From the sequence record PX583170.1: DNA of 56,260 bases. One strand, given 5' to 3'. The DNA comes from a phage. The notes under the pieces were generated by a model. The model saw only the letters and a list, made by a program, of their open reading frames with translations. It was not told the origin of the DNA and did no database searches. Shown here piece by piece: positions 1 through 55,917 of the stretch (positions are counted from its first letter, which is position 1; each line of letters begins with the position of its first letter). The position numbers and the translations under genes were made by a program.

Positions 1-135
1 CGGACTTAAAATACGGTCCCTACCCCAACTTTTTCCTACAGCCTATCGGCTTAATGATAACACCAAGTTAGGCGCTTCGCTTATGAGTCAAGGTCAAAGG
101 CAATCAGAGCACGCTGTTGTAACGAGCTAGTCTTA

Positions 136-157
136 CCATTAGTTGGTTGTGATTATG
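136..157 (+). promoter_or_regulatory. Promoter-motif copy P1 (candidate phage-RNAP promoter) upstream of the RNAP gene
   Basis: ccATTAGTTGGttgtgattatg; shares the CATTAGTTG core with 13 other sites. Confidence 0.4.
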
Positions 158-214
158 AATAGGCTACGCAAGTCTAATCCGTTTCAGTTAAATCATAATC
201 AATTGGAGACTATC

Positions 215-2329
215 ATGACTAATGAAGAATATCGTGCACTGGCTGCTGATGGCGCTCGCTTAAAAGAAGAAGGCCACGGTTGGAAAGACGTGCTTGATAC
301 GATGGACCGTTGCAACCAAATGGTTGATGAAATCACTACTGCTACACAATCCGAAACTAAAACCGAAACTAACTTGGAGACTCGCAAAATGACAACTATC
401 TCAACTCAAACTATCAAATCCGTTGTCCCTGCTATCACGGCTCTGGTATACCGTGCTAAAGAGAAACAGAACTACATGCAGCCTCAGACCTGTGCTATTG
501 CTGCTCTTGCAATCTTCAAGATGATGACCTCATTCACTCGTGATGATGTTGTCCCAGCCATTGCAATGGTTGAGCTGGCTTCTGCTTCTATTGCTGATGC
601 CAACCGTTATAACAACGATTTGAAAGCAATGCACTATGTTGACCCAGCTATCAACCTCATTGGTTTGGCTAAGCACTTTGGCTTCATTACCATGAACGAA
701 GACAAGTCATTCCAACAAACTGATACATGGGTTGAACTGGTTACAACCAAAGACACAGCAGTGCCATTCACTGAGCGTGTTACATCTGAATCTCGTCGCA
801 AGCCTTTCGTTAAAGGTGGCAAAGTTAAGCCATCCAAAACTTTGAAAGCTGCAATCGAATTCCTGCAAGATACTGAGTACCATGTGGAGACTGAGATGGT
901 TCGCATCATCCAGTCCATGCTTGAGCAACGTACCTACGGTGGTTTGCAGATGCCAGAAGCAATCCAGACTGAACTTCATGTTTGGAACAATGCTGTAGCA
1001 ATGATGAATCAGGATAAGCTGTATTCTGACTACTTTGCTGATAACCGTGGTCGCCTGTATCATGTAGCATGTGCTGGCCCTAACCCACAATCCTCTGACT
1101 TTGCTCGTTGCTTGTATTCTCACAATGTTGAGAACATCGTTAAGAAGTTTAACGAAGATGGTTCTACTACCATCGCATACAACATGTTCATGGCAGAGCT
1201 GGAAGATATTTCTGGTGGTGAATGGTGCAGTGCTAAGCGTTTAACTTATGTTGCTCAGAATCCAGCTGGTTCACTTGCTCGCATGATGAACATGCCTAAA
1301 GCTGAACGTCCTTCCAAGCCATTCACTTATGTTCGTCTGGCTCTGGATTGGTTCAAGTTTGAGACTACAGGTGAGTGCGATTCTCGTGTAGGCTTTGGCT
1401 TAGATGCTAAATGTTCTGGTACTCAATATCTGGCATTCATTGCTGGTAACATGGAAATGGCTCGTGCAACAGGTCTGGTTGATTCTGAGACTAAAGCATC
1501 TGACCCATACCAGTTATCTCTTCGTGAACTGTTGAAGTTACTCGACCGTTCTTCAATGAAGCCATCTCCTGAAATCATGGATGAGTTCTTGAATCCGAAA
1601 GCTGGTCGTAAGTTTATCAAAACTCCATACATGGCTATCCAATATGGTGGTGGTAAAGCAGCATTGACTGGTTCTTCTGACTTCATTAGCTACATGACAG
1701 AAGCTCTCCAGATTCCTATGGAGAAAGCTGAGGCATTTGCTGAACTGTGTGTAGAAGCAATCCATAACGCATTGGGTGCTAAGATTAACATGTTCATCGA
1801 GAAAGCTGCTGATGCTGCATACAATCGTTGTGTTGAACTTGGCAAAGAGTACATCACATATCGCCACACTGATGGTCAGGTTGTAATGAAGCCTTGCTTC
1901 CCATCTCGTGAAATCTGTGAGGCATTCAGCATTCGTGTTGATAGTCAAACTCGTGTTATCTTTGGTCAGATTCAGGAGAACAAGCCTTGGACCATTCGTG
2001 AGTCCAATCCAACTAAAGAAGAGTTCAAGCGTACCTTCGTTGTTAACTACATCCAAGGTATTGACGCATTGGTTGCTCGTACTGTTGCAGTTAAAGCTAA
2101 AGAAGCTGGTCTTCGTGGCTTTACTTCAATTCACGATTGTTTCCGTTGCTGCTTAGCTGATGCTCCACGTATGATGGAAGTTATTCGTGCAGCATATGTT
2201 GAAATCTTCGTAACCAACAATCAATTCGAGAATCTGTCTAAGCAACTCGGTGGCATTCAGATGTATCATGAGAACATCGTAACCGAAGAGCTTCTGATGA
2301 GCGAACATGCTTACTACTTCTGTCAATGA
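215..2329 (+). CDS. T7-like single-subunit DNA-dependent RNA polymerase (ORF opens at 143; ATG at 215 has SD ggaga)
   Basis: Motif A-like FGLDAKCSGTQYLAF (T7 DGSCSGIQHF), motif B-like KFIKTPYMAIQYGGG, motif C-like TSIHDCF (T7 HDSF). Shorter than T7 RNAP. Confidence 0.85.
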   Translation: MTNEEYRALAADGARLKEEGHGWKDVLDTMDRCNQMVDEITTATQSETKTETNLETRKMTTISTQTIKSVVPAITALVYRAKEKQNYMQPQTCAIAALAIFKMMTSFTRDDVVPAIAMVELASASIADANRYNNDLKAMHYVDPAINLIGLAKHFGFITMNEDKSFQQTDTWVELVTTKDTAVPFTERVTSESRRKPFVKGGKVKPSKTLKAAIEFLQDTEYHVETEMVRIIQSMLEQRTYGGLQMPEAIQTELHVWNNAVAMMNQDKLYSDYFADNRGRLYHVACAGPNPQSSDFARCLYSHNVENIVKKFNEDGSTTIAYNMFMAELEDISGGEWCSAKRLTYVAQNPAGSLARMMNMPKAERPSKPFTYVRLALDWFKFETTGECDSRVGFGLDAKCSGTQYLAFIAGNMEMARATGLVDSETKASDPYQLSLRELLKLLDRSSMKPSPEIMDEFLNPKAGRKFIKTPYMAIQYGGGKAALTGSSDFISYMTEALQIPMEKAEAFAELCVEAIHNALGAKINMFIEKAADAAYNRCVELGKEYITYRHTDGQVVMKPCFPSREICEAFSIRVDSQTRVIFGQIQENKPWTIRESNPTKEEFKRTFVVNYIQGIDALVARTVAVKAKEAGLRGFTSIHDCFRCCLADAPRMMEVIRAAYVEIFVTNNQFENLSKQLGGIQMYHENIVTEELLMSEHAYYFCQ

Positions 2330-2370
2330 TATTAATTGGTCAAGGATGACCACAAACTTGGAGACTTATA

Positions 2371-2571
2371 ATGAACATTCAACAAATCAATCAAATCGAA
2401 AACTGTTTCAATCCTCATCATACCTGTGACATGAGCAACTTATCTCGTCCTACAGTGGAGGAGACTAAAGACTTCTTAGAATTGTTAGCAGAATATAAAC
2501 AAGAATCGCATGTACTATTGCATGCATATTTGCACAATTCTGGATACTTTGATACAGAAATACCGTTCTGA
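2371..2571 (+). CDS. Hypothetical small protein (66 aa)
   Basis: ATG with SD ggaga 8 nt upstream; followed by a terminator. Confidence 0.5.
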   Translation: MNIQQINQIENCFNPHHTCDMSNLSRPTVEETKDFLELLAEYKQESHVLLHAYLHNSGYFDTEIPF

Positions 2572-2576
2572 TATTT

Positions 2577-2603
2577 GGGAGCTTCGGCTCCCTTTTCTTG
2601 TTT
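2577..2603 (+). terminator. Rho-independent terminator
   Basis: GGGAGC-ttcg-GCTCCC perfect 6-bp stem with UUCG loop, then ttttcttgttt. Confidence 0.75.
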
Positions 2604-2623
2604 CAACTAAGTCGCATAACTCA

Positions 2624-2645
2624 GCATTAGTTGTATGTGAATCTA
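2624..2645 (+). promoter_or_regulatory. Promoter-motif copy P2
   Basis: gCATTAGTTGtATGTGAATcta, directly after the terminator and 22 nt before the next gene. Confidence 0.5.
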
Positions 2646-2666
2646 ATAAACCATTTGGAGCATATC

Positions 2667-2834
2667 ATGTTTACAGTGACCTTAGTAACCTATTATGGCA
2701 AGCAAGTTTGTGAGAAGTTTGAGACTTTGAAAGAAGCCCGTGAGTTTGCAGCTCGTGAAGAGAATATTTATGTAGACTGTGAAATCACAGATGGTGATAA
2801 GCAGTATGAAGTTGTAGCTCCTACACTCAACTGA
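2667..2834 (+). CDS. Hypothetical small protein (55 aa; ORF opens at 2631)
   Basis: ATG at 2667 preceded by tttggag SD; the earlier TTG start lies inside the promoter motif. Confidence 0.45.
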   Translation: MFTVTLVTYYGKQVCEKFETLKEAREFAAREENIYVDCEITDGDKQYEVVAPTLN

Positions 2835-2848
2835 TTCCCAATATTCGG

Positions 2849-2858
2849 ACAATATTGT
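2849..2858. promoter_or_regulatory. Perfect 10-bp palindrome ACAATATTGT (operator-like)
   Basis: Self-complementary; flanked by aatattcgg and gcatgtaatattgt. Confidence 0.35.
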
Positions 2859-2884
2859 TGCATGTAATATTGTCCCGATATTCG

Positions 2885-2906
2885 ACATTAGTTGGATATG
2901 AAGTAA
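2885..2906 (+). promoter_or_regulatory. Promoter-motif copy P3
   Basis: aCATTAGTTGGATATGAAgtaa; followed by hairpin CGGAG-aaata-CTCCG at 2913..2927; no gene for ~1 kb downstream. Confidence 0.45.
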
Positions 2907-3277
2907 AGAATACGGAGAAATACTCCGCATGACATATTGAATCATTCTAGAAACATTCAGCATGTCAGCTTTGAGTTACAGTGTTGTAATGATGTGGCAA
3001 TCATTGAACTCCCTGGGTAGGCCACCTACAGTTCCAGCAACCATGACACAGAGTAGGAATATCTATCCGAAACTTGTACTTCACCTATAGCATGTCTATT
3101 AGCTACAGTATTGTTCCTTCTCCTATTATCAAGGCCCACCCACAAGCCGGGAGATAACTTTGACAAGACTGGAACTTTTGGACATGCTTCTTTCTTTCTA
3201 CAAGAATTTGAAAGAAGAGAAGAAGTCGGACTAAGCCTCTCGTTTTCACGCAGAAGCCGCCCCGATTTTGAGCAACA

Positions 3278-6683: not shown

Positions 6684-6723
6684 ATTAACAAGGAGCATTC
6701 ATTGAGTGTTCCTGATTAATCTA

Positions 6724-6745
6724 ACATTAGTTGAATGTGAATAAC
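6724..6745 (+). promoter_or_regulatory. Promoter-motif copy P6
   Basis: aCATTAGTTGaATGTGAATaac, 18 nt before the next gene. Confidence 0.5.
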
Positions 6746-7284: not shown

Positions 7285-7319
7285 TTATCAGGGTGCATTT
7301 ACGAGTGTACCCGAATAAT

Positions 7320-7340
7320 CCAATTAGTTGGATAAGAGGG
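7320..7340 (+). promoter_or_regulatory. Promoter-motif variant P7
   Basis: ccAATTAGTTGGATaagaggg. Confidence 0.35.
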
Positions 7341-8999: not shown

Positions 9000-9350
9000 G
9001 TGAAAACTTTATACATTGCACTTACAATCTTATTTGGAGTATTTGCATTCAAATCAGAAGCATCTATTCGTAACTTTCAGTGTGGCGGATATAAAATGTC
9101 CGTTGAAACAATTACAATGAGCCAGCCACTCATTGCAACAATTTCTTTGCACGAAGGTACTTGGATTGAGATTCCAGACAACGGAAACCCTAACCCAATG
9201 TCTACAGTGTTCTACAACACACAGAGCAGTAAGCTGGCTTTAGTTGGTGTTGACGCTGAGGAACGTTTAGTGCTACAGATTTATCGTGACATTGACTTCT
9301 TTCATGCCAAATTTCCACTGCTATCAACATATTGTAAGGAAGTTAAATGA
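9000..9350 (+). CDS. Hypothetical secreted/periplasmic protein (GTG start)
   Basis: N-terminal signal-like MKTLYIALTILFGVFAFKSEA. Confidence 0.4.
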   Translation: MKTLYIALTILFGVFAFKSEASIRNFQCGGYKMSVETITMSQPLIATISLHEGTWIEIPDNGNPNPMSTVFYNTQSSKLALVGVDAEERLVLQIYRDIDFFHAKFPLLSTYCKEVK

Positions 9351-9580
9351 CGTCATCTGAATTTACCATTGATGGAGTACCGTACTTACTTGAATCCAGT
9401 TGCGAATATCGTCACTGGTCAGTAATTCGCGACCGAGTAGTTAAATTCTTGGAGCGAGTAGGGAAAGATGCAGCTATTCTGACTACAGCCACAGTAGAAG
9501 GGACAACCGAAATTAATCGGGAGCTTGTATCTTTTAAATTAACCATCAACCCAACAGGAAATCCATTCCGTGAAAGTTGA
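9347..9580 (+). CDS. Hypothetical protein (77 aa)
   Basis: ATGA overlap with previous gene. Confidence 0.45.
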   Translation: MTSSEFTIDGVPYLLESSCEYRHWSVIRDRVVKFLERVGKDAAILTTATVEGTTEINRELVSFKLTINPTGNPFRES

Positions 9581-9839
9581 AGAACTAGCTGACCACCTTG
9601 AGGCAGCAAAACAAGAGCTTGCAACTCACTCAGAACGTGTTGAAACACTGAAAGGGCAAGGTTCAACAACCGAAGAAATCCAACTATTTACAGATAATGT
9701 ATGGTTTTCAATGAATCGTGCACAGTTTATTCAGATTCAGGAAGACCGTCTTGCTGAATTGGAAAAGCGTGTTAAAACACTTGAGAACTTGCTCGTAACA
9801 TTGCAAGAAACTTTGGACCAGGAGCTGAAAAATGTCTAA
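9570..9839 (+). CDS. Hypothetical coiled-coil protein (89 aa)
   Basis: Heptad-like Leu/Glu-rich sequence. Confidence 0.4.
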   Translation: MKVEELADHLEAAKQELATHSERVETLKGQGSTTEEIQLFTDNVWFSMNRAQFIQIQEDRLAELEKRVKTLENLLVTLQETLDQELKNV

Positions 9840-10230
9840 TGTTAAGCTGGGCCAACGTTCTCTTGACCGGCTCAAGGGCGTAAATCCATCTCTTGTAGCA
9901 GTTTTCAAACGTGCATGTGAAACAATGCCTTTTGATGTAACTGTTTTGGAGGGTTTACGCTCTTATGAACGTCAACAAGAGCTTTTAAAGCAGGGTGCAA
10001 CCAAAGTTTCTGTTAGCCGACACATGTCAGGCAACGCTTTGGACATTGCACCATACCCAATTGACTGGAATGACCTCGAACGATTCCAAATTGTAGCTGA
10101 ACACATGTTCAAAGCCGCAGAAGAGCTTGGAGTTGTTATTCGTTGGGGCGGAACATGGGAACGAACCTTCACTAAGCCAGTGAAATGGGCCAAGTTCCTC
10201 GACGCACCTCACTTCGAACTTCCAGCATAA
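9832..10230 (+). CDS. Peptidase M15 (VanY / L-Ala-D-Glu endopeptidase-like) peptidoglycan hydrolase
   Basis: SRHMSGNALD (H-x6-D zinc motif), RWGG, C-terminal APHFELP. Confidence 0.7.
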   Translation: MSNVKLGQRSLDRLKGVNPSLVAVFKRACETMPFDVTVLEGLRSYERQQELLKQGATKVSVSRHMSGNALDIAPYPIDWNDLERFQIVAEHMFKAAEELGVVIRWGGTWERTFTKPVKWAKFLDAPHFELPA

Positions 10231-10250: not shown

Positions 10251-10529
10251 ATGAATTACGAAGATATTCCAAGAGAGTTGAATGCACTAGAGTCAAGAAC
10301 CATCCGTGCAGAGAATATTCTCCACCAGCACCTATCAATTAACGTAGGTGATGAAAAGAAGATGCAGTACACTATGGAACTTGACGATGTAGTCTACACT
10401 GTCAGTTACAACGAGAAGGCTGCGATTCTCAGTGCGCTTATCAAAGGTGGGAATGAGCGAATCAATCAACTAAAAATTCTGGACACAGAATTGAGAGGCA
10501 CTTGGGAGAAACTAAATGCAAAACGATAA
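10251..10529 (+). CDS. Hypothetical protein (ORF opens at 10185)
   Basis: ATG at 10251 with SD ggag. Confidence 0.4.
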   Translation: MNYEDIPRELNALESRTIRAENILHQHLSINVGDEKKMQYTMELDDVVYTVSYNEKAAILSALIKGGNERINQLKILDTELRGTWEKLNAKR

Positions 10530-11076
10530 CATTACTCAAGCAGTAGAACAGCTTAAGTCCTGGCGTAAAGATGAAACCTTATTGGTTCGTTTCTACACAG
10601 ACACATATACAGGTGAAAACAGCTCTAAATTTGTAGATGCGTGGATTGATGGACTGTCTTGGCGCCACTATGATTTCGACATGCGGGAGTATTTGCATGA
10701 AGAATACGGCATTGAGTATCCAGAATCCGGTACATATGACGTAATTGAATCAAACGAAGAAGATGTTACCGAAGTTTGTTTTGTCAATGGTCTGTTCAGC
10801 ATTCGTAAGTATGATAAGTTCAATGAGCTGCTTGTTGATACCGATTTGGATGTAATTCTTGCAGCATTACGTAGTGGTGATATTGATATTTTCACTGTGG
10901 ATGACTTGAACGATATGGTCATTGCTCGGTGCGACTCAATTGTAGACTACTTTAAAAATTATGATGGCATAGAAGTTCCAGACCATCTTCGTCCATATAT
11001 CGATTGGGATGCAGTTGCGAGAGATTACGGAAGTGACTACACTTTCTCCGAAGGGATACTATTCTCAAATGCGTGA
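10516..11076 (+). CDS. Highly acidic hypothetical protein (186 aa)
   Basis: Asp/Glu/Tyr-rich throughout; strongly net-negative by eye. Confidence 0.5.
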   Translation: MQNDNITQAVEQLKSWRKDETLLVRFYTDTYTGENSSKFVDAWIDGLSWRHYDFDMREYLHEEYGIEYPESGTYDVIESNEEDVTEVCFVNGLFSIRKYDKFNELLVDTDLDVILAALRSGDIDIFTVDDLNDMVIARCDSIVDYFKNYDGIEVPDHLRPYIDWDAVARDYGSDYTFSEGILFSNA

Positions 11077-11308
11077 TTTAAATATCGCTGAACTTGAGGC
11101 TGGATTGATTGTTCACCACCAGCCTCGAAACACTTTCTATCGTATTCTTGGTCCTACAAAGATTAAAACTCACTGCGGAAGTTGGGTGGATGGGTTTGCT
11201 TACCAAGAAGTGAAGAAGTACGGGGACCATACTTTCTTAAGTATTGATTCTTCTACTATCTACACACGACCGAAAGAGCTATTTGACTCAGACTGGAAAA
11301 CACTATAG
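11069..11308 (+). CDS. Hypothetical protein (ORF opens at 11009)
   Basis: ATG at 11069 overlaps upstream stop (ATGCGTGA). Confidence 0.4.
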   Translation: MRDLNIAELEAGLIVHHQPRNTFYRILGPTKIKTHCGSWVDGFAYQEVKKYGDHTFLSIDSSTIYTRPKELFDSDWKTL

Positions 11309-11377
11309 TTCCAGGCGGGTTTCTTCGAAGTGCCAAGCGGGTTTTGTGCTCGCATTGGCCTTCGGCTTTAGTCTGAA

Positions 11378-11399
11378 ACATTAGTGGGATTTGATTCGG
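11378..11399 (+). promoter_or_regulatory. Promoter-motif variant P8
   Basis: aCATTAGTgGGATttgattcgg. Confidence 0.35.
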
Positions 11400-11517
11400 A
11401 CCACTTAGGGAAGAAAGGCATTATACACTTATCGCCAAATGGGTGTCAAGCACTTTCTTCATTTATTTAATTTATTCTTATTATTCTTTTTGTTTGGAAT
11501 ATTGGAATAATTCTGAA

Positions 11518-11539
11518 ACATTAGTTGGAATTGAATTAG
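11518..11539 (+). promoter_or_regulatory. Promoter-motif copy P9
   Basis: aCATTAGTTGGAATTGAATtag, with prefix ttctgaaa shared with P8 and P12. Confidence 0.45.
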
Positions 11540-11654
11540 TGTAATTCTGTCTGTACTCTTTTCCATTAGCAATTGTAGAGGAAGTCCACTGCAATAAGCG
11601 CAGCCTCAAACAACCAAGTCTGGACAACTTGGGAAGAGAGTGCAGCACAAAATT

Positions 11655-11676
11655 ACATTAGTTGGAATTGAAGAAA
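11655..11676 (+). promoter_or_regulatory. Promoter-motif copy P10
   Basis: aCATTAGTTGGAATTGAAgaaa. Confidence 0.45.
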
Positions 11677-12309
11677 CAACATCAGATAATAACTTTGTAA
11701 CTCGGTAGACCGTTGCGGCCGCATCGTGCGAGAATGTTCGACTCATTCTACAAAGTTATTTTCGATGGAATGTTTCCATCATATACATTTATCTTTTAAC
11801 ATAGGCCAAAGGGCCGGAATACTTATTCGCAGAAAAGCTATTCACTTGTTATAGGCGATGTATTGGGATGAATTGGAACTAAATAAGCAAGCTGTTAGGG
11901 CTGAATAATTAGAGGGTTATGCCTCATGCTTATGTTAGTCATTCGAAAATAGGTTTGTGCCACAAGCCGCTGGTGCTCTGAGGAAGTCGGACAAACAGGG
12001 CTTAGAGTGGCATAATCCGCACAAAACCGCGCCACCAGCTATGCCAAAGCAGGTGGTTTGGGTGAATGTATTGGGAAGGGTTGCAAAGCCTCTGTGACAC
12101 GCCTGAGCCGCAAGGCGACGACACTCATGTGATTAGCGTATCGCACCCTAACGGGAGTAACCCTTCGCCAATGCAGTTATCCAGAATTGACACAAACGGC
12201 AGGCAGTGGCCCGATTTTCGGCCCTCCTGCGCTGCCCTGTGGCCTGTTTCACGGGCTAAAAGATGAGAAGAGAAGTCACAAACACTGAATCGAAAATTGG
12301 AGAGTTCCT

Positions 12310-14046: not shown

Positions 14047-14413
14047 GTTGCCGATGGCAAACTTGAGAGACTAAGCTAAATCGATCTGGCATGCACTGGA
14101 AGATCGTCCGGTGCTGCCTTGAACCCGCTCTGAAAGGAAGAGTGGGCTTCAATGAGCATTCTTGTGATTAGAGTTGGGAGGAAGGCCGATGCCCAAGCTC
14201 ATGGCCCAGACGAGAGTGTTCATTGAAGTTATTTCAATTTGTGCATAATTCAAACACCAGTGCATGAGCCTTCGACGGAAGGCAATGTTGGGAAATTTGT
14301 TGTGTACAAATTGAAGTAGTTTTCTGAGTCTTACGACGGGCCTAAACTGCCTGGAGTTATTGCGACTGTTTTATTCATTTAAAATAAATGCAAATGATTC
14401 TGAAATGCGAGTT

Positions 14414-14711
14414 GCGGCTTAATTAAATTTAAGTCCTCTCCGTGGTCTTCCAATCCCACGTAACCAAATTTGGCGCATTGTGGCTTCGAGATGTGATTAA
14501 TAAATCGGAGCAATAATTAATTTGTATTCTGCGATGCAATGCAGGCTTAAGTCCTCCAGTGCGCGTGGGGATGTGACAGAGTACAAACTTAATTATTAAT
14601 TTGTATTCTGGTGTTGTTCGCCAAGATTGGTGCACTCATGATTGGTAGTGTTGGGGAGCGCGGAGCCTAAAATATTATGTGGCATCTCCTACCAGAGTAC
14701 AAACTTAATTA
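14414..14711. repeat. Degenerate tandem copies of a ~70-120 bp non-coding element
   Basis: Exact repeats: ttaagtcctc (14429, 14547), attaatttgtattctg (14516, 14595), cagagtacaaacttaatta (14577, 14693). Confidence 0.6.
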
Positions 14712-15147
14712 TGCAGTTGGATATTTCTAGAGGACGGACGAGCACACTGGAATGTCTTCAATTGGTTTAGTGTGAGAAGCTATGCCAATTTGAAACGTAA
14801 CTCCTTGAGGAAGTGCTCCTCTGGATTTCCCTCCACACAGGAATCTCAAGCCTGTGGCAGTGACTTCGAAGCTGCACTGCGTAACCTAATTCACCCTAAA
14901 GTGAGTTGCCCTGAGCATGGAAATAAACTGCTCAAACCAATGATGCCCACAAAGGTGGGATAAGTTAGGTTGCCTGTTGGTACTTGGGTTCAACACCTGC
15001 TTGCACTCGCAAAGTAGTGCCTCGTACCTGAGATGAAGTGAGTCGGGACCATCAATCCCACGTTATGTCAAAACACAGTAGGCGGCTCACAGATTCTACA
15101 AGCCTCGCAGTTCGGGAAAACCTGCGTTATCAAAACCCACCCAATTT

Positions 15148-15240
15148 GGACGAGTAGCTCAGAAGGTCTGCTCCAGAGCTTAGTCAGGTAGAGCAATCTG
15201 TTCGACAGATGTGTCGTTGGTTCGAATCCAACCTCGTCCA
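15148..15240 (+). tRNA. tRNA-like gene, unusually long (93 nt); anticodon tentatively CAG (Leu)
   Basis: Perfect 7-bp acceptor stem GGACGAG/CTCGTCC, canonical T-arm GTTGG-TTCGAAT-CCAAC, discriminator A; loop GTCAGGT at 15183..15189; the D-arm could not be folded by eye. Confidence 0.5.
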
Positions 15241-15269
15241 CCCACTTTCAACAATAACATGGAGTCCTC

Positions 15270-15418: not shown

Positions 15419-15655
15419 ATGCAACAGCTTAAATCAGTAATTCTTGGCGTCCTGACTGCATTTGGCATTCTTATTGCAGTGTTCCTCAAAGGCAAAAGCT
15501 CAGGCAAAGCCGAGGAGCGTCAGGAAGCCACAGAGAAGCAACTAGATTCATTAAAAGAATCTATCGAGATTAAATCGCATGTTCAGAAAGAAGTGTCTAG
15601 CAGTTCTGATAGCAATGTCGATAGTGAGTTGCTCTCAAAGTGGGTTCGTAAGTGA
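15419..15655 (+). CDS. Hypothetical small membrane protein (78 aa)
   Basis: N-terminal hydrophobic segment VILGVLTAFGILIAVFL. Confidence 0.4.
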   Translation: MQQLKSVILGVLTAFGILIAVFLKGKSSGKAEERQEATEKQLDSLKESIEIKSHVQKEVSSSSDSNVDSELLSKWVRK

Positions 15656-16625
15656 TTACTGCTTGATTGCACAACCAATTTATTTGGATGTTGCAGAAGT
15701 AAAAATCTTATCACGCGAAACCAAAACACAGATTTTAGTCCACAATGAAACGTGGGCACAAAAGTGTTCGAAACTTACCCGACAGTGAGTTGAACAAAAT
15801 GCTCGCCATCGCATGAACAACATTTGGCAGTCCGGTACGGGACTTTAAACACACGTATATCATAGTCGAGGGAGTGCGCGACTTTAAATAACGAGACTCT
15901 AGCCACTTGTGGTATGGCAGGTGTAACTCCTGCAATTGCTCTGGGCATAACAATTAAAATTGCTGCCTCGTATTGAACGCGAGAAAGTTCAGGTAGTCAC
16001 TTCCTAGAACAGTGGCCGGGAACATACCTAGACAAAAGTGCTTGAGAACGTTAGCTCTGTCTTGCCAGCATTAATGGCACGTTGGCCGCGTAAAGGCCAC
16101 AGCGTCTGGCCAACGTATCGGCCACCAAATTCAATGGGCTAGTGCAAATGTCAGTCACTAGAAGATGTGTTGCAAAACGTCTTCCACGATGTGCAAAGTG
16201 TCAGTCACGTGCCCGCCAATTTCCTCCAACAGTTATGCCTCTGTTCAAAAGGCTCAAGAGAGCGTCTGGCATACCGTAGCGATACGGCTTAGTTGCGCTG
16301 ATTGTGTTGTGCAGAAAGAAAGTTCAGGCTTTCGTTTGGGTTACTCCTCATCCCGAAGTTAGCTGGATTCAAAATCCAGACTATGTTCCTATACACATGA
16401 AATATGCAAGTCGAGGGTTCTTAATGTTCAAACATGATGCGAGCATTAAGCGGGTTTATACTTTTCCCCGATGGTCCCCATAAACAAGGCTGATTCACTT
16501 GGGCGGTTCGAATCAAATTTAATAAGTGTCTTGGCCGCAGTGGAAACATCATTTAAGCCAATGTATTGTAATGTTCGTAATAGTCCACGTCAGGACACTT
16601 ACTTAAATTTTAACTGGAGAGAAAC

Positions 16626-28857: not shown

Positions 28858-30466
28858 ATGACTTCCAAGAAGAAAAACAATCTCTCTGTTAAAGTTGCAG
28901 ATGGGTTAGAAAACCTTGTAACGGGGTTGGGCGGTCAGGCAGATAAGTCCACTTTTAACCAGTGGACTTTCTCAAACAAGAACGCGAACTATCGCGAACT
29001 TATGAACCGCTTCCGTGAGGACTGGGTTGCACAGAAAGTGTGTACCGTCATTCCTCAAGATATGACGCGTAAGTGGCGGCATATTGATACCGAAGAAGGA
29101 CGCAAAGCGGATAAGAAACTTCGTATTCGTAAGCTGTTCCGTGAGGCGTATCAATGGGCCAGGTTGTATGGTACTTCGTTTGTTCTGCTCGACCGCGAAC
29201 TTATGAACCGCTTCCGTGAGGACTGGGTTGCACAGAAAGTGTGTACCGTCATTCCTCAAGATATGACGCGTAAGTGGCGGCATATTGATACCGAAGAAGG
29301 ACGCAAAGCGGATAAGAAACTTCGTATTCGTAAGCTGTTCCGTGACTCAAGATATGACGCGTAAGTGGCGGCATATTGATACCGAAGAAGGACGCAAAGC
29401 GGATAAGAAACTTCGTATTCGTAAGCTGTTCCGTGAGGCGTATCAATGGGCCAGGTTGTATGGTACTTCGTTTGTTCTGCTCGACCTAAAAGGTACGGGC
29501 AAACTTGATACACCATTGCGACTGGATAACTTGAAGACTGGATGTATTAAATCCATGAGAGTTATTGACCGCTCACGCTTATTTGCCGCAGGGACTATGG
29601 TTCTGGACCCTTTGAGTCCTCACTATGGTTTGCCAGAGTATTACACTTTGGCTGGGTATCCCGGCTATATCCACTACACTCGTTTCCTTCGGTTCGAGGG
29701 TACTGAACTGCCGCTGTTCGAATTCCAACGCAACATGTGGTATTCTGATTCGGTACTTATTCCACTGCTGAAAACGATTGACCAATTCTACACAACTGCC
29801 GCTGCTGCTGCCAGCCTTGCCCAAGAAGCCACTATTGATGTGGTAACTGTTGAAGGCTTACAATCTCTGCTTACATCACCGGAAGGTGAAGCTGCTGTGA
29901 TGAAGCGCTTCAAACTCATGAAGCTGGCAAAGAGTATTTATAACGTCTTAATTCTCGACAATACGGAGAAGTATGACACCAAGTCAATTGCACTATCTGG
30001 TGTGAAAGATTTGATTTGGGAATACTTGAAGATAGTTGCTGCCGCAGTTGGTATTCCGGCTACACGTTTCCTTTCTGCATCTCCAGACGGTATGAATGCT
30101 ACGGGCGAATCTGACCTCGTAAACTATATCGACTTGTTGACTGGCTTGCAGACTTCTGTGTTCGACCCTCGTTTAGATGTGGTAGACAAGATTGTCCAGG
30201 CGCACTTTGGCATTGAAGAATATAACTACGAATGGTTAGATATCTTCCCTGAATCCAATGTTGAGAAAGCGAAGCGAGCTAAAGATTTGGCATTTGCTGT
30301 TGACCTGCTGGTTAACAACGGTACTATTACTACCGAAGTTGCAAACGAAGTCATGTTCCATTCGGGCGTGTTCGGAACTTGTGACCTTGGCAAACCAAAT
30401 CCTAATCCTCCTAACATCCAAAAGGGTAACGCAAGTGAAGCAAAACCAAAACCTGGTTCAGCTTAA
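28858..30466 (+). pseudogene. Putative portal gene split into two ORFs (28858..29364 and 29285..30466) by a scrambled tandem duplication
   Basis: Removing 29194..29485 (292 bp) gives one continuous 438-codon ORF; portal call is by position after TerL only. Confidence 0.5.
28993..29485. repeat. Scrambled tandem duplication: full 201-bp unit, then two partial copies
   Basis: Unit 28993..29193; copy 29194..29345 matches unit bases 1-152; copy 29346..29485 matches unit bases 62-201. Confidence 0.9.
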
Positions 30467-31982: not shown

Positions 31983-32557
31983 CGCCACCTCCAGCTCCTA
32001 CAGTATCTGCTGTTGCAGGGGCTGTAACTGCGGACGCATCTGCCTCTGATGCAACTGTAACTGTAGACAAACTGTTTAAGTTTGAGAACTCTGCGGCAAC
32101 AGATTATAACTTCGCTGTTACACCTCCCGTGACTGGTGTTTCTGTGGCGGCAAACGGCACTGTGACTGTACTCAGTGCAACGACTACAGCCACTTCTGCG
32201 ACAATCAAGGCAACAAATAAAACAGAGTCTGGCGTAACTGCATCCAAACAGATTACGATTAAGCCTAAGCCTCCTGCACCTACGGTGTCTGCTGTAGATG
32301 GAGTTGTAACGGCTGATGCGTCTTCTACTGATGCCACTGTAACTGTGGACAAACTGTTTAAGTTTGGTAACTCTACAGCAACAGACTACACCTACGCTAT
32401 TACGCCTCCTGTGACTGGCGTTTCTGTGGCTGCAAATGGTACTGTAACCGTCTTAAATGAGACAACTACCGATACCTCTGCCACGGCTAAGGCAACAAAC
32501 AAAACAACCTCCAGCGTGACTGCAACTAAAGAGATTGCTATTACGCCGAAGTCTTAA
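31976..32557 (+). CDS. Two tandem Ig-like (Big_2-like) domains in the -1 frame, reachable only by frameshifting
   Basis: No ATG/GTG/TTG between 31964 and 32128 in this frame; repeat unit PPAPTVSAV...VTGVSVAANGTVTVL...KATNKT occurs twice. Confidence 0.5.
   Translation, partial: AVTPPPAPTVSAVAGAVTADASASDATVTVDKLFKFENSAATDYNFAVTPPVTGVSVAANGTVTVLSATTTATSATIKATNKTESGVTASKQITIKPKPPAPTVSAVDGVVTADASSTDATVTVDKLFKFGNSTATDYTYAITPPVTGVSVAANGTVTVLNETTTDTSATAKATNKTTSSVTATKEIAITPKS
31988..32554. repeat. Diverged tandem duplication, 2 x 282 bp, encoding the two Ig-like domains
   Basis: Protein repeats start at 31988 and 32270; ~80% nt identity by eye. Confidence 0.7.
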
Positions 32558-37909: not shown

Positions 37910-40900
37910 ATGAAGACAATGGCTAATCAAAAAGATTTAATGAAGTTGAGCGTTAATGAGTTAATTGCATTAGGCTCTCAAAGCGGTCTGACTTTCCATG
38001 CTGGTATGAAGAAGTCGCACATGGTTCAACAACTTAGTGCGAGCGCTGCTTCGGGATGGCTGGATACAAATGCAGAATTAATGGGCGGGTCGTTCGAAGA
38101 TGACAGTTTAATTACTGAATCTTTGGGTGACTCTTCCATGATTTCAGACGCTGCCCACATTGCACAAGTGCTTTCAAGTGCTGGCTACACAGAAGCATTT
38201 CATGCAGCAATGAATGGCCCATCACACCATGTAGAAGCTGTTCACGCATACATGGAAAGGCTTGGCGTTAGCACAGATGATGTGTGGATGCACATGCCGA
38301 AGCCAAATCCGAACTTACCGCAAGGTAACTTCAACATGCTTAATGCCTATATGCGAGATACCTTGCAAGGGCATCAAGATATTATGCCGGAAATCCCAGG
38401 TCATTATGCTGGCGATATTATGGCAGAATACTCCACCAACCGTGGAAACATTGCTGACTCATATAACTACATGGCTCACATGTATGTTGACCGTGAGCAA
38501 TACAGCAATCATGAACAATACGCAAGAGACATTAGTCGAGTTGCCAAACGTCTGGAACGAGAGTTACCCTCAGCCTTTAAGGAAGTTGGGTATACATCCG
38601 CATCTAATGTAGGAAATAAATCGGCCCCACATATTTCTTACATGGATGCACTCCCTCAGATTGGTTCTCCTTCAATTGTTTCTGGCATTGCACATCCTCG
38701 TGCACCTCTTAACGCATCTGGACTACCACTTGGCTCTTATGGTTCTGGCATAAATCCAGAATACTCCCTCACTGCATCATTAACTGGTGGCACTGGTTGG
38801 AGTGAACCAAGCAAGGCTTTGTATTCTTCTATTAGTGAAGCTGTTAAATCTGCTGCCAAAGTTTATTCTGGCTCCAAAGGGATGCTGAATACTCGTCACG
38901 AAGTATCTGACCGTGACATGATTATGGATAGTGCAACACGCTACACGGATTTGGAAGAAGCCAGAAGCGGATACGAAAACCTTCGTTCTGAACTTGCAGA
39001 TGAGCCAGCTTATTCTGCATCAAGTGTTCGAGCCATCCTCGAAAACACTTATGATAAAATGGATGCCGAACCTGTTCGCATTCCAAAGATGAAGGGAGCT
39101 TCACAGCGAGTCGATAAAGATTCACTGTCAACATCTACAGATTTTACAGCACAACTTGGAGAGGCCACCAATTGGAACTCTGCAAGAATGCGTCGCGAGG
39201 AACTTGCGATTGCAAACATGGATAGTGCTGGATTCCGTGATGTATCAGACTATGGCACAGGACGTTCCAAGTCCCCCGTCCGATTCCACGACTTAGAACA
39301 GGGCAGCCAAGAGTGGCTAGACTTCCGTAAAAATTATGACATAACTGGCTCAACTGTTGGGACCTTTTTAGGAAACAACCCATACACCCGACCTTGGGCC
39401 GGTATGATTGATAAGATTGGCCTATCTCGTAGTAAAGAGCACAGCGATTTCACCAAGAAGATGTTCGCTGATGGTCACAGGACGGAAGAAGAAGCACGCG
39501 CTCGTGTTAGTAAGGAATTTGGATTTGATATCAAACAAACTGGCGCTATAACAAATGACAACTATCCCGCCTTCATGTATTCTCCTGATGGTCTTATTGG
39601 GGATGATGCCATTTGGGAGCACAAGAATCCGCAAAGGGCTGGTAAGTTTGCTGACCTTCTTAAAGGCGACCATCCAGACTACATGGACCAAATTCAATTT
39701 GGTATGCACGTTTCTGGCCGTTCTCGTGCTTTGTTCTCACAAACCATCAACGACGAAACACGTTCACAATGGATTGAGAAGGACGAAGGATGGTACGAGA
39801 GAAACCGAAATCGCCTTGATTCTGTGCTTGGCCGTCTTGATGCTGGGCGAGAGTTTGTTAGAAACAATGCTGGATTAGGGCGAGAAGAGCTGATTGCTGG
39901 TGCAAGAAGTGCAATGACTGGTGATGGAATCTGGAAAGATATTCGTCAAAAGTCTACTCGTGGCTATTCTGCTGTTGCTGGTACCCCAGAAGACCCGTTT
40001 ATTGGTTCGCGTTCTTCGTACAATCCAGAAGCATCCTACTCTGACTACAAGCCAAACTTTGTAATGCACGAGCAAAACTTTCCGGCAACCACTGGAAATG
40101 GTGACACCGGAAATGACTCGATGGCATTGTCTGTTAAGAAAGGTATCCTTGCTGCTCAGGAAGAAAACAGGCAGAAAGGTATCGGTGCAGATGCAGACTT
40201 TGACGGCAAAGCTGATTCAATGGGCTGGAACCGTGAGAGATTTGACGCTGCCAATGGCGGTGGATATTCTGGCGGTGGCGGTGGTCGTGGCGGCAACTTC
40301 ACAAGTGGTGGCAACTACTATGATGACTACGGTCGCATGGGTGGTTCACTAGCTGCTGGTATTGCTGGTGGCAGTATTGGTTCAGCAACCAACGGAGTTA
40401 TGCAAGCATTGATGGCAACTCCTGCGGGACGTATGGCTGCCGTAGGCATTGGTGCTATTCAGATTGGCAATGAAGCTGCTGAATACATGAATGACTTTAT
40501 CGGCAACTCGCTTGATGCTGGTGTGATAAATCCTAATGAATATTCTTCTATGTCGCAAGGCTTGGAGATGTTAGGACTCAATTCACAACAAGCGGCACGT
40601 CTGAATCAAACCACACATAGTGCCTACAACACCCTGCTTAACGGCGACCCCAGCGCCGCTGTGAACATCGTTCGCGGCAGTAGGGGATTGCTCACCATAG
40701 GTGATATTCGTGCGACAGGCGGCGACCCTGTGGCCCTGGCTCGCATCATGCAGGAAAGGGGCAAGGAGCGTGGCTGGAGTCAGGCCCGTATCGCAGGTGC
40801 TGCCGAAATGGCTGGCCTGAATGGGATGGCGCGAGCCTATGACCGCACGGAATACAGCCATGAGCAAGCTGGTTCGGTGGTAGAAGCGGGTAGAAACTCC

Positions 40901-41635
40901 GACTTTGCCGAAGGTATGGCCCAATCGGAAATGTTGCAGGGAAGCCGCGCACGGATGCTGCCAAGCTACAACGTGCCACAAAGTGTCTTATCTAATGGTG
41001 CTTCTGTATTTGAGGCTGGCAGTGATGCACTTGACGGTGTACGCACTGGACTGAATAAGACGCGAGAATTTGCTGGAAATGTTTACGACTTTATCGCTCA
41101 AGAGGAATCTGGCGGTCGTGAATATAATAAAGATGGTTCTCGTGTAACAAGTCGCACTGGTGCTCGTGGGATAATGCAGATTCTCCCTTCGACTGCCCGT
41201 GACCCAGGATTTGGAATCAGGCCGTCTGATGGAACTCCAGAAGATGATGCACGAGTTGGTCGTGAATACTATGACGCAATGTACAAGCGTTATGGCGACC
41301 ACGAAAAGGCAATGGCTGCTTACACCGATGGTCCTGGCACTGTTGACAAAGCTGTCGATAAGAATGGATTGGATTGGCTAACTGCTGTTCCTGTACAAGC
41401 ACAGAATCGCGTCAAAGCATTCCGTGAATGGTCCAAGTCTTCTCAATCTTTGGAAGAAGGTGCTACAGGGTTTACTCGTAATGGAATGTCATACGGTCAA
41501 ACCCAAACTGTTGTTAATGTTAAGATTGATGCTAAGGTCAACAACCAAACTGCTTCTGCTACAGTTGCAATTCCTGGTGGTCAGACTGTGACTCAACAAA
41601 TGAACATGAACAACGGTGCGCAACAAAGAAGGTAA
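37910..41635 (+). CDS. Tail tape measure / internal tail protein with C-terminal lytic transglycosylase (SLT) domain
   Basis: 1,241 aa; Gly-rich segment GGGYSGGGGGRGGNF; SLT-like QEESGGREYNKDGSRVTSRTGARGIMQILPSTA. Confidence 0.65.
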   Translation: MKTMANQKDLMKLSVNELIALGSQSGLTFHAGMKKSHMVQQLSASAASGWLDTNAELMGGSFEDDSLITESLGDSSMISDAAHIAQVLSSAGYTEAFHAAMNGPSHHVEAVHAYMERLGVSTDDVWMHMPKPNPNLPQGNFNMLNAYMRDTLQGHQDIMPEIPGHYAGDIMAEYSTNRGNIADSYNYMAHMYVDREQYSNHEQYARDISRVAKRLERELPSAFKEVGYTSASNVGNKSAPHISYMDALPQIGSPSIVSGIAHPRAPLNASGLPLGSYGSGINPEYSLTASLTGGTGWSEPSKALYSSISEAVKSAAKVYSGSKGMLNTRHEVSDRDMIMDSATRYTDLEEARSGYENLRSELADEPAYSASSVRAILENTYDKMDAEPVRIPKMKGASQRVDKDSLSTSTDFTAQLGEATNWNSARMRREELAIANMDSAGFRDVSDYGTGRSKSPVRFHDLEQGSQEWLDFRKNYDITGSTVGTFLGNNPYTRPWAGMIDKIGLSRSKEHSDFTKKMFADGHRTEEEARARVSKEFGFDIKQTGAITNDNYPAFMYSPDGLIGDDAIWEHKNPQRAGKFADLLKGDHPDYMDQIQFGMHVSGRSRALFSQTINDETRSQWIEKDEGWYERNRNRLDSVLGRLDAGREFVRNNAGLGREELIAGARSAMTGDGIWKDIRQKSTRGYSAVAGTPEDPFIGSRSSYNPEASYSDYKPNFVMHEQNFPATTGNGDTGNDSMALSVKKGILAAQEENRQKGIGADADFDGKADSMGWNRERFDAANGGGYSGGGGGRGGNFTSGGNYYDDYGRMGGSLAAGIAGGSIGSATNGVMQALMATPAGRMAAVGIGAIQIGNEAAEYMNDFIGNSLDAGVINPNEYSSMSQGLEMLGLNSQQAARLNQTTHSAYNTLLNGDPSAAVNIVRGSRGLLTIGDIRATGGDPVALARIMQERGKERGWSQARIAGAAEMAGLNGMARAYDRTEYSHEQAGSVVEAGRNSDFAEGMAQSEMLQGSRARMLPSYNVPQSVLSNGASVFEAGSDALDGVRTGLNKTREFAGNVYDFIAQEESGGREYNKDGSRVTSRTGARGIMQILPSTARDPGFGIRPSDGTPEDDARVGREYYDAMYKRYGDHEKAMAAYTDGPGTVDKAVDKNGLDWLTAVPVQAQNRVKAFREWSKSSQSLEEGATGFTRNGMSYGQTQTVVNVKIDAKVNNQTASATVAIPGGQTVTQQMNMNNGAQQRR

Positions 41636-50581: not shown

Positions 50582-50923
50582 ATGGAACGCTTATCCATTC
50601 AGATGTTTGTGGACCTAATGCACCAATATGGCGTATGGCATGGATTATTGGCTGGCCTAACGGCTTTAATCCGTGGGGCATATGAAAGCGAAGGCTTAAG
50701 CAAGGCGCTGCTGGATGCGGCGCTGTGCAGCTTAATCGGACTGTTTGCCTTTCATGTCGCTGGTACATTTGAAACCTTCACAACTAATGTCACTATGCAG
50801 TTAGTTCTGGCTATCGTGATTGGTGTCATCGGTGCAAACCTCATTATCACAACTGTCAGGGAAAGTTTCTCTGGCGCAATCAAACAACTTAATCCTTTGA
50901 CGTGGTTCAAGAAGGCACGATGA
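50582..50923 (+). CDS. Putative holin (ORF opens at 50525)
   Basis: ATG with SD taaggaaa; three hydrophobic segments; directly upstream of endolysin. Confidence 0.5.
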   Translation: MERLSIQMFVDLMHQYGVWHGLLAGLTALIRGAYESEGLSKALLDAALCSLIGLFAFHVAGTFETFTTNVTMQLVLAIVIGVIGANLIITTVRESFSGAIKQLNPLTWFKKAR

Positions 50924-50940
50924 AATGATAAGGAACCCGA

Positions 50941-51495
50941 ATGCTATCATTCAAAGTCCTTGCAGTTCTGGCAGCTTTAGTTCACATCAACGCCCCAGCT
51001 TCGGTTGGGGCAGTGAATTCTGCTATTACAGATTTTGCAAGTCATTCTTATTTAAATGGAAGTCTGAAACTATCTTCTTCACAACGCAAAGAGCTAGAAT
51101 GCTACACTAAAGTTATCTGGTATGAAGCTCGCGGAGAAGACAAACATGGAAAGATTCTGGTAGCTAATGTCGTCCGTAATAGAACAGAGTTCGGGAAGCC
51201 ATTCGCTAACACCGTTTGTGATGTTGTCTATCAACGCAATCAATTTGCATGGACACGAGAAGCAAAGAAGAAGAATGCCCAATGGAAGCATGTAGCAAAG
51301 ATTAATTATGCCACAGAACAACAACAAGTTCTGGACACTATTAATGTTGCAATCTCTTTTGTATTATTTAATCAACCCTCTGTCACCAAAGCAACCCACT
51401 TTTGTACAGCATCGGAGAAGTGCAACTTCAAGAATGTTAAAGGTTTGGGACGTTATGGTGGTCATAAATTCTATGAGTATCTAGGAAATCTGTAA
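50941..51495 (+). CDS. Endolysin, SleB-like cell-wall hydrolase with N-terminal signal or SAR segment
   Basis: [24 protein letters not shown]; core [28 protein letters not shown]. Confidence 0.6.
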
Positions 51496-52701: not shown

Positions 52702-53168
52702 AAGAGTAATATTAGGAATGCGTAAAGTTCAAAACCAAATGGTACATGGTCGGTCAACTGTACCTCCTTCGGAGAAGGTACCTGGATAGAAATTCGTTCA
52801 TGGTCGGTCAGCTGTATCTAGCCGAAATTTGTTCGAACAGTTGTCTGACTATGAAATAAATTTTTTTTTATAATTTTTTTTTTATTTTTAAATATTGCTA
52901 CAGAATTAATGAGACTAGAATTCGTAACAAAGCTACGAGACTCGAATTGTTTCAATATTAACGAGACTCAATCTGTGACAATATTATAATTTTTATTTTT
53001 GGGCCAGCGGGGAGGGGAAGCCCAACGTCCTATCGGACTTAAAATACGGTCCCTACCCCAACTTTTTCCTACAGCCTATCGGCTTAATGATAACACCAAG
53101 TTAGGCGCTTCGCTTATGAGTCAAGGTCAAAGGCAATCAGAGCACGCTGTTGTAACGAGCTAGTCTTA

Positions 53169-53190
53169 CCATTAGTTGGTTGTGATTATG
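53169..53190 (+). promoter_or_regulatory. Promoter-motif copy P1 (right repeat copy)
   Basis: Identical to 136..157. Confidence 0.4.
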
Positions 53191-53247
53191 AATAGGCTAC
53201 GCAAGTCTAATCCGTTTCAGTTAAATCATAATCAATTGGAGACTATC

Positions 53248-55362: not shown

Positions 55363-55403
55363 TATTAATTGGTCAAGGATGACCACAAACTTGGAGACTT
55401 ATA

Positions 55404-55604
55404 ATGAACATTCAACAAATCAATCAAATCGAAAACTGTTTCAATCCTCATCATACCTGTGACATGAGCAACTTATCTCGTCCTACAGTGGAGGAGACTA
55501 AAGACTTCTTAGAATTGTTAGCAGAATATAAACAAGAATCGCATGTACTATTGCATGCATATTTGCACAATTCTGGATACTTTGATACAGAAATACCGTT
55601 CTGA
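55404..55604 (+). CDS. Hypothetical small protein, second copy
   Basis: Identical to 2371..2571. Confidence 0.5.
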   Translation: MNIQQINQIENCFNPHHTCDMSNLSRPTVEETKDFLELLAEYKQESHVLLHAYLHNSGYFDTEIPF

Positions 55605-55609
55605 TATTT

Positions 55610-55636
55610 GGGAGCTTCGGCTCCCTTTTCTTGTTT
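55610..55636 (+). terminator. Rho-independent terminator, second copy
   Basis: Identical to 2577..2603. Confidence 0.75.
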
Positions 55637-55656
55637 CAACTAAGTCGCATAACTCA

Positions 55657-55678
55657 GCATTAGTTGTATGTGAATCTA
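55657..55678 (+). promoter_or_regulatory. Promoter-motif copy P2 (right repeat copy)
   Basis: Identical to 2624..2645. Confidence 0.5.
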
Positions 55679-55699
55679 ATAAACCATTTGGAGCATATC

Positions 55700-55867
55700 A
55701 TGTTTACAGTGACCTTAGTAACCTATTATGGCAAGCAAGTTTGTGAGAAGTTTGAGACTTTGAAAGAAGCCCGTGAGTTTGCAGCTCGTGAAGAGAATAT
55801 TTATGTAGACTGTGAAATCACAGATGGTGATAAGCAGTATGAAGTTGTAGCTCCTACACTCAACTGA
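55700..55867 (+). CDS. Hypothetical small protein, second copy
   Basis: Identical to 2667..2834. Confidence 0.45.
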   Translation: MFTVTLVTYYGKQVCEKFETLKEAREFAAREENIYVDCEITDGDKQYEVVAPTLN

Positions 55868-55917
55868 TTCCCAATATTCGGACAATATTGTTGCATGTAA
55901 TATTGTCCCGATATTCG

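Follow-up and report, generated by a model that had tools for sequence, protein, structure and literature searches.

Three peptidoglycan-cutting domains in a Carltongylesvirus genome: a possible division between one entry enzyme and a two-enzyme lysis system

The M15 peptidase locus and the other wall-cutting domains

Sequence record PX583170.1 (56,260 bases, referred to below as the window, i.e. the whole stretch of DNA that was analyzed) is a complete linear genome of Carltongylesvirus (Chaseviridae, Cleopatravirinae) from the ST32/phiEcoM-GJ1 group of E. coli myophages, with 93–96% DNA identity to Escherichia phages flopper, TH53, SA91KD and ST32 and with all its genes on the + strand. Three of its proteins carry domains that cut peptidoglycan: an M15 zinc peptidase encoded at 9832–10230, a SleB-like hydrolase encoded next to a holin, and the tape measure protein, which bears an SLT lytic transglycosylase domain. 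A sequence-only reading had proposed these three assignments and asked which of the enzymes is the true endolysin, and whether the peptidase acts at entry, in superinfection exclusion or in lysis. Our Pfam domain search upheld all three domains, and we agree that "the" endolysin cannot be told from sequence alone.

The layout is already in print for sister phages. The description of SKA49 (Carltongylesvirus) reports "two distinct types of endolysins", spread over two modules of the genome, and a distant spanin (PMC10282059), the ST32 paper lists ORF24 and ORF78 each as "endolysin", and the curated record of 4HA13 contains an "L-alanyl-D-glutamate peptidase", an "i-spanin", an "o-spanin", a "holin class I" and a "SAR endolysin" (SAR: signal-arrest-release). 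Thus, the three-domain observation is not new, it is unsurprising to a phage-lysis specialist, and the arrangement, although real, is less unusual than had been implied. For T5-like Salmonella phages the question of M15 plus SleB has been raised and left open (PMC11180984).

The gene at 9832–10230 (+ strand, ribosome-binding site AGGAGCTgaaaaATG) encodes an M15C-type zinc peptidase of 132 amino acids (aa), predicted to be an L-alanyl-D-glutamate endopeptidase. It matches Pfam Peptidase_M15_4 with 36.9 bits (curated cut-off 25) and PHROG 465 "endolysin" with E 1e-54. The H-x6-D and HFE motifs noticed before correspond to H64-x6-D71 and to D124-x-x-H127 in "DAPHFELP"; these residues and the conserved W109 leave the active site intact, and all five (H64, D71, W109, D124, H127) are kept in the orthologs from ST32, 4HA13 and Fougasse. 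In the enzymes of T5 and RB49, the tryptophan that corresponds to W109 is required for catalysis (PMC10487532). Sequence matches in the PDB are L-Ala-D-Glu endopeptidases: 23ri (4e-24), 8q2g (1e-23), EndoT5 (2mxz/8p3a, 6e-19) and ChiX from Serratia (5opz, 4e-18). EndoT5 and EndoRB49, the nearest characterized relatives, are proven endolysins (PMC10487532). A hydrophobic-segment scan flagged nothing in the M15 protein, which, with neither a signal peptide nor a transmembrane segment, appears to be soluble. It is 100% identical to the protein of Ecp_YSF and 81% identical to that of ST32. The C-terminal third (aa 82–132, 10080–10230) varies among the lineages of the genus, and in ST32 the loop after W109 is six residues longer; a recombination hotspot at residues 81/82 has been described in the SKA49 paper (PMC10282059).

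The M15 gene is part of a tight, partly overlapping run (9000–9350, 9347–9580, 9570–9839, 9832–10230, 10251–10529, 10516–11076 and 11069–11308, all on the + strand) and lies between the SSB and ArdA-like genes. The neighbors had been described as a signal-peptide protein and a coiled-coil protein. This agrees with our results: the product of 9000–9350 has an N-terminal signal sequence, followed by a predicted PliC/MliC-like 8-stranded beta-barrel (structure model and fold search, see below), and the 89-aa product of 9570–9839 is helical or coiled-coil, with weak prefoldin-type matches. Between them lies a gene for a small protein of 77 aa (9347–9580), and both this gene and 9570–9839 overlap their neighbors at the ends. 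Towards the downstream end of the run we find a 92-aa protein (10251–10529) and an ArdA-like anti-restriction protein (10516–11076; PHROG 14321 "anti-restriction protein", 1e-52). We considered a hidden holin or spanin beside the M15 gene and rejected it, as the flanking small proteins all lack a transmembrane segment or lipobox; in particular, the products of 9347–9580 and 9570–9839 have no transmembrane segment, and hence neither is a hidden holin.

Holin, SleB-like transglycosylase and spanins

The sequence-only reading had placed a SleB-like hydrolase together with a holin at 50582–51495, and both are confirmed. The holin (50582–50923, + strand, 113 aa) belongs to class I and to the lambda S family (Pfam Phage_holin_3_1, 33.3 bits, cut-off 23.8; PHROG 126). 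Aligned with a lambda S sequence entered by hand, it shows 26% identity over 73 aa (E 6e-7). Two strong hydrophobic segments were flagged by the scan and one weaker segment was read from the sequence. The adjacent gene (50941–51495, + strand) encodes a SleB-like lytic transglycosylase of 184 aa with a predicted Sec signal peptide and a predicted cleavage site after A-P-A at residue 20. The protein has the fold of the SleB/Hydrolase_2 catalytic domain and matches its profile. Its ExRGE motif (YEARGE) aligns with GESRGE of SleB (4f55); we take the glutamate of this motif to be the catalytic residue, and E62, R64, G65 and E66 are invariant in 41 homologs. The N-terminal peptidoglycan-binding domain of full-length SleB is missing, and the catalytic domain is preceded by the signal sequence and a short helical segment. 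The counterpart in SA91KD is 100% identical.

The annotation of this protein as a SAR endolysin implies an uncleaved, weakly hydrophobic N-terminal transmembrane segment of ~20 residues. In the 41 homologs the N-terminal hydrophobic core is variable and spans only 9–13 residues. Behind it comes a conserved small-x-small motif, which reads A-P-A|S in the window protein and V-P-A|S, A-L-A|S, A-Q-A|A or A-E-A|S in others. The structure model gives no confidence for residues 1–19. Since the core is short and variable, the A-x-A motif is conserved, and the cores of the homologs from phages BUCT696 and T5 are too short to span a membrane, the N-terminus is probably a cleaved Sec signal peptide rather than the annotated SAR domain. 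The four cysteines conserved among the homologs fit a periplasmic location. A literature search for SleB-type SAR endolysins returned no experimental work.

The earlier inventory of three hydrolases and a holin was right as far as it went, but it overlooked a spanin pair at 15419–15788. The i-spanin (15419–15655, + strand, 78 aa) has an N-terminal transmembrane segment and is homologous to the "i-spanin" of 4HA13 and to PM1_021; the o-spanin (15579–15788, + strand, 69 aa) has the lipobox IVSC, is homologous to the "o-spanin" of 4HA13 and to PM1_022, and its gene overlaps that of the i-spanin in another frame. A transmembrane i-spanin, a lipobox-bearing o-spanin and overlapping genes are the hallmarks of a two-component spanin, and phiEcoM-GJ1 has been named among the phages with this type (PMC6139136). 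The pair is located 5 kb downstream of the M15 gene, so that the M15 gene, the spanin genes and the holin–SleB-like pair place the lysis genes at three loci. An endolysin gene distant from the holin gene is normal in T4, T5 and T7.

The tape measure protein

The tape measure protein (37910–41635, + strand, 1241 aa) contains an SLT lytic transglycosylase domain at aa 1061–1152 (41090–41365), in agreement with the original suggestion (Pfam SLT, 48.5 bits, cut-off 21.3; motifs ES, GIMQ and AYxxG present). Its 4HA13 ortholog was found in purified virions with 64–67% sequence coverage. Neither the M15 nor the SleB-like ortholog is among the 4HA13 virion proteins detected at a coverage of at least 50%.

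A YqaJ-like (lambda-exonuclease-type) domain is also present in this protein, at aa 468–604 (39311–39721; Pfam 52.4 bits). The six Chaseviridae genomes that we checked all encode it in their tape measure protein, where a domain of the nuclease type is unexpected.

Comparison across the Chaseviridae

We compared representatives of six genera by tblastn and Pfam. In three genera of Cleopatravirinae, i.e. Carltongylesvirus (the window and ST32), Sabourvirus (4HA13) and Loessnervirus (Fougasse), an M15_4 gene lies between the SSB and ArdA genes, and the SleB-like gene closes the late operon, after the holin. Suwonvirus (PM1), the fourth member of this subfamily, has the same late end, but the M15 slot, with a homolog of 9000–9350 upstream and ArdA downstream, is occupied by a CHAP protein (28.7 bits, cut-off 26; catalytic Cys and His present), and no M15 domain was found anywhere in the PM1 genome. 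In Nefertitivirinae the SleB-like gene is again at the end of the late operon, and the peptidase gene is directly upstream of it: Yushanvirus (Shewanella phage Spp001) encodes an M15_3 protein (39.6 bits), and Pahsextavirus (Aeromonas phage BUCT696) an M15_4-like protein, which scores below the cut-off (23.6 bits) and has both H-x6-D and D-x-x-H. Thus, an exported SleB-like glycan cutter and a signal-less cutter of stem peptides are found together in six of the six genera, with the family and position of the peptide cutter varying. CHAP and M15 are unrelated and act on the same class of substrate, and we argue that the replacement of one by the other points to selection on cleavage of the peptidoglycan peptides.

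Candidate promoters and expression timing

A motif of ~23 nucleotides (nt) with the consensus CTGAAACATTAGTTGGATGTGAA occurs 13–16 times in the window, nearly always on the coding strand and between genes, at + strand positions 2619, 2880, 3741, 6719, 7316, 11373, 11513, 11650, 12841, 13609, 21551, 26580 and 41663; some copies directly follow terminator-like hairpins. It is present at equivalent places in ST32, 4HA13, PM1 and Fougasse and absent from the Nefertitivirinae genomes examined. It is probably the promoter of the phage RNA polymerase proposed by the authors of the PP101 paper, who put forward eight such promoters (PMC6989608); according to the ICTV profile, promoters of Chaseviridae have not yet been identified. 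A T7-like RNA polymerase is encoded by the phage (Pfam RNA_pol match).

The nearest candidate upstream of the M15 gene, a CATTAGTTGGAT-type copy at 7316–7338 (+ strand), precedes the SSB gene; a stronger copy of the same type lies upstream of it at 6719–6741 (+ strand), and the next cluster appears only at 11373–11672. The M15 gene would then be transcribed together with the SSB and anti-restriction genes, in an early/middle unit comparable to class II of T7. The label "early" given to it by the sequence-only reading is likewise a deduction from gene position. Scans for sigma-70 promoters and terminators around both loci gave counts not above those of shuffled controls.

A model of entry and lysis

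With moderate confidence, we interpret the three activities as serving two functions, namely entry, with one enzyme, and lysis, with two. At genome delivery, the SLT domain on the virion-borne tape measure protein would cut the peptidoglycan locally. Lysis would be carried out by the products of the three loci, i.e. the M15 peptidase, the SleB-like transglycosylase, the holin and the spanins. The M15 peptidase, which has no export signal, would build up in the cytoplasm from the early or middle period of infection, and its early synthesis would be harmless because the enzyme is held there, a situation shared with T5 lys, T7 3.5 and T4 e. Last to be made, beside the holin, would be the SleB-like transglycosylase, which would be exported by the Sec pathway, probably with cleavage of its signal peptide. 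Triggering of the lambda-S-type holin, a member of a large-hole family and hence suited to the release of a cytoplasmic enzyme, would then free the M15 peptidase, so that peptide cross-links and glycan strands would be cut together, and the spanins encoded at 15.4–15.8 kb would complete lysis at the outer membrane. Normal lysis would thus depend on both enzymes.

Several considerations weigh against this interpretation. The searchable literature yielded no experiment on any lysis protein of Chaseviridae. The expert annotators of 4HA13 and PP101 take the "holin-SAR endolysin" pair as the lysis module and the M15 protein merely as a peptidase. A soluble exported transglycosylase should lyse the cell early unless it is restrained. 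Our leaning against a SAR domain and towards a signal peptide draws on sequence features, read without a trained predictor, and the proposed expression timing on gene position and a candidate promoter motif. Finally, the six genera represent two subfamilies only, and therefore few independent evolutionary events.

In a more elaborate variant, which we regard as doubtful, the early operon and the late cluster would make up a single controlled system of wall degradation with several parts. The SleB-like enzyme may be harmless on an intact, cross-linked wall until the peptidase released by the holin strips the stem peptides, and the PliC-like product of 9000–9350 may inhibit a transglycosylase, either the SLT domain of superinfecting relatives or the phage's own SleB-like enzyme. 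Lysis as such a two-key event would explain why an exported SleB-like protein and a cytoplasmic peptide cutter always occur together in Chaseviridae and in T5-like phages.

Two other divisions of labor deserve consideration, each giving lysis to a single enzyme. The holin and the SleB-like protein could form the full endolysin system ("holin-SAR endolysin"), leaving the M15 peptidase with an earlier, non-lytic job such as limited remodeling of the wall. This is the view of the curated annotations and of the PP101 paper (PMC6989608), and it accords with the SleB-like gene being the only hydrolase gene to adjoin the holin, where the late block ends, with the packing of the M15 gene among ArdA-like and SSB genes, and with ChiX, an M15 homolog (E 4e-18) that acts with a holin in non-lytic secretion. 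We nevertheless find it unlikely, as an enzyme without a signal cannot get to the wall until the holin fires, and the comparative data speak against it as well: in PM1 an unrelated CHAP protein occupies the slot, and in Nefertitivirinae the peptidase is encoded within the late lysis cluster. Moreover, in T5 a SleB-like protein with a signal is expressed from the early region and early lysis does not follow, which indicates that export of such an enzyme is insufficient for lysis.

Conversely, the M15 peptidase could be the sole true endolysin and the exported SleB-like protein could have a non-lytic periplasmic role. Two points speak against this: the SleB-like catalytic glutamate is invariant in the 41 homologs, and the gene is the most conserved one of the lysis region in the six genera, where it always closes the late operon and, in the case of Cleopatravirinae, adjoins the holin. 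T5 provides the precedent for this assignment, as its endolysin is an M15 enzyme and its early-region, signal-bearing SleB-like protein is not regarded as such, and a lambda-S-type holin would fit a cytoplasmic cargo; on balance we consider the proposal improbable.

A role of the M15 peptidase at entry, as an enzyme carried in the virion, or directly in superinfection exclusion is suggested only by its unusual position beside a gene for a periplasmic protein, and we think it very improbable. Its gene lies outside the structural genes, its ortholog is missing from the 4HA13 virion list defined above while the SLT-bearing tape measure protein is present there, the SLT domain already covers entry, and without an export signal the peptidase could not access the periplasm of an intact infected cell. 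Of the three roles that the sequence-only reading had left side by side, lysis is thus supported by the comparative evidence, entry is not, and exclusion fits the PliC-like neighbor better. The idea that the M15 protein also binds the T7-like RNA polymerase and adjusts the shift to late transcription, in the manner of T7 lysozyme gp3.5, is invited by the presence of such a polymerase and of an early/middle wall hydrolase resembling T7 gene 3.5, but it can be set aside as highly unlikely, since the unrelated CHAP protein in the PM1 slot would not keep a specific polymerase-binding surface, T7 lysozyme has the amidase_2 fold and not that of M15, and the peptidase of Nefertitivirinae is encoded in the late cluster.

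The PliC-like protein encoded at 9000–9350

The structure model of the 9000–9350 product (mean predicted local distance difference test score, pLDDT, 82.8) consists of a signal helix followed by an 8-stranded barrel. PliC and PhiA are its best fold matches, with PliC from Brucella as the top Foldseek hit (probability 0.98, E 0.05–0.12). The family is small (19 close homologs; 38 representatives among 1.84 billion proteins), and its members share two invariant cysteines, one close to each end of the mature domain, an arrangement also seen in E. coli MliC. We could not find any sequence homology to MliC/PliC by PDB profile search, by Pfam (19 members and 10 distant members), by a profile search of the 1.84 billion proteins or by hhalign (probability <3%), and the inhibitory loop motifs of MliC/PliC (SxSGAxY and YxxxTKG) are absent from the family alignment. 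The protein is therefore PliC-like in its modeled fold only, and a candidate periplasmic inhibitor of a wall-cutting enzyme.

A profile search detected this family in 4 of 4 genomes of Cleopatravirinae and in neither of the two of Nefertitivirinae. The SLT domain of the tape measure protein has the same distribution (4/4 and 0/2), whereas the SleB-like protein is present in all six, so that the tail SLT domain is weakly favored as the target; it has to be noted that the split amounts to a single difference at the level of subfamilies. Exclusion of the type exerted by T4 Spackle, with the tail SLT domain as the target, is thus weakly suggested. In this reading the protein would act against the SLT domain that superinfecting relatives carry on their tails; alternatively, its target would be the phage's own SleB-like enzyme. 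T4 Spackle is a helical protein, not a beta-barrel. The likeness lies in a small periplasmic protein encoded in the early region of a phage whose tail has a wall-cutting domain (PMC7677548). Should the 9000–9350 product prove to block a transglycosylase carried on tails, the exclusion strategy of Spackle would have a second example, built on an unrelated structure.

Other features of the genome

Bases 1–3227 are repeated exactly at 53034–56260 (3227 bp). The two copies make up the long direct terminal repeat known from Chaseviridae, with a length of ~3 kb (PMC12842549), and since the gene for the T7-like RNA polymerase (143–2329) lies within it, there are two copies of this gene per genome. 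The portal gene region (28858–30466) contains repeats at 28993–29436, where a 152-nt segment has an exact copy 201 nt downstream and a further, partial copy. Compared with ST32 the region is longer by 292 nt and the portal frame is broken into open reading frames (ORFs) of 168 and 393 aa, which suggests either an artefact of the assembly or a genome that is defective. Between the genes for the head protease and the major capsid protein there is a 282-nt tandem duplication (31988–32551, 77% identity), which probably encodes a repeated Ig-like decoration domain.

A tRNA-like remnant at 15177–15232 scores just under the Rfam threshold (27.9 bits, cut-off 29), and relatives carry an annotated tRNA-Arg at the matching position; ARAGORN found no tRNA in the window. 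Three stretches of the early/middle region (11309–12309, 14047–15269 and 15789–16625) are unusually long and lack a convincing ORF, and in the first of them the promoter-like motif occurs three times in 300 nt. GenBank entry PP952070.1, "Staphylococcus phage Pel53" with S. hyicus as the recorded host, has 88% DNA identity to this group of coliphages, and its host label is probably wrong.

Comparison with known systems

SKA49, ST32, phiEcoM-GJ1 and 4HA13 have the same set of genes in the same order as the window, with no structural difference. Where we differ from the Carltongylesvirus and Sabourvirus papers is in the interpretation: there the SleB-like protein is a SAR endolysin and the holin a pinholin, whereas the sequence features discussed here favor a cleaved signal peptide and a lambda-S-type holin.

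The endolysin of Pantoea phage PA1 is lysozyme-like and closest to endolysins of unrelated phages, and it is irrelevant to the M15 locus. ChiX from the ChiW/ChiX system of Serratia is an L-Ala-D-Glu endopeptidase of the M15 family homologous to the window protein (E 4e-18), and it needs a holin-like partner (PMC4259817). That system serves non-lytic secretion in a bacterium, in contrast to a virulent phage with spanins. The SleB-like protein departs from Bacillus SleB in having a signal peptide in place of the N-terminal peptidoglycan-binding domain, and its substrate cannot be the cortex with muramic-delta-lactam, which E. coli lacks. Like T7 gene 3.5 lysozyme and the product of T4 gene e, the M15 protein is a cytoplasmic wall hydrolase whose gene sits among early or middle genes, at a distance from the holin, but those enzymes have the amidase_2 and GH24 folds. 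T7 has its own single-subunit RNA polymerase, and its gene 3.5 is far from the holin gene; we see no sign of polymerase regulation by the enzyme of the window phage.

The closest parallel is with T5. Its endolysin EndoT5 is a signal-less M15C L-Ala-D-Glu peptidase with 35% identity to the window protein, its endolysin gene is also in the early region, and its SleB-like protein T5p081, the product of an early-region gene, has a classical signal peptide (MKAALLLVAALTFSFSSQA|S); in addition, the tape measure protein pb2 of T5 is wall-cutting. The T5-like record OR426634.1 contains both the M15 and the SleB-like genes. On the other hand, the T5 holin adjoins the M15 gene, whereas here the holin adjoins the SleB-like gene, and the two holins belong to separate families. 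The acidic residues found in the calcium-binding loop of T5 are missing from the loop after W109, which makes calcium control of the window enzyme doubtful. Two unrelated phage families thus repeatedly pair an exported SleB-like protein with a cytoplasmic peptide cutter, and this comparative pattern gives the layout some value. If both enzymes are needed, it would be unwise to assume "one phage, one endolysin" in annotation and in the choice of enzymes against Gram-negative bacteria.

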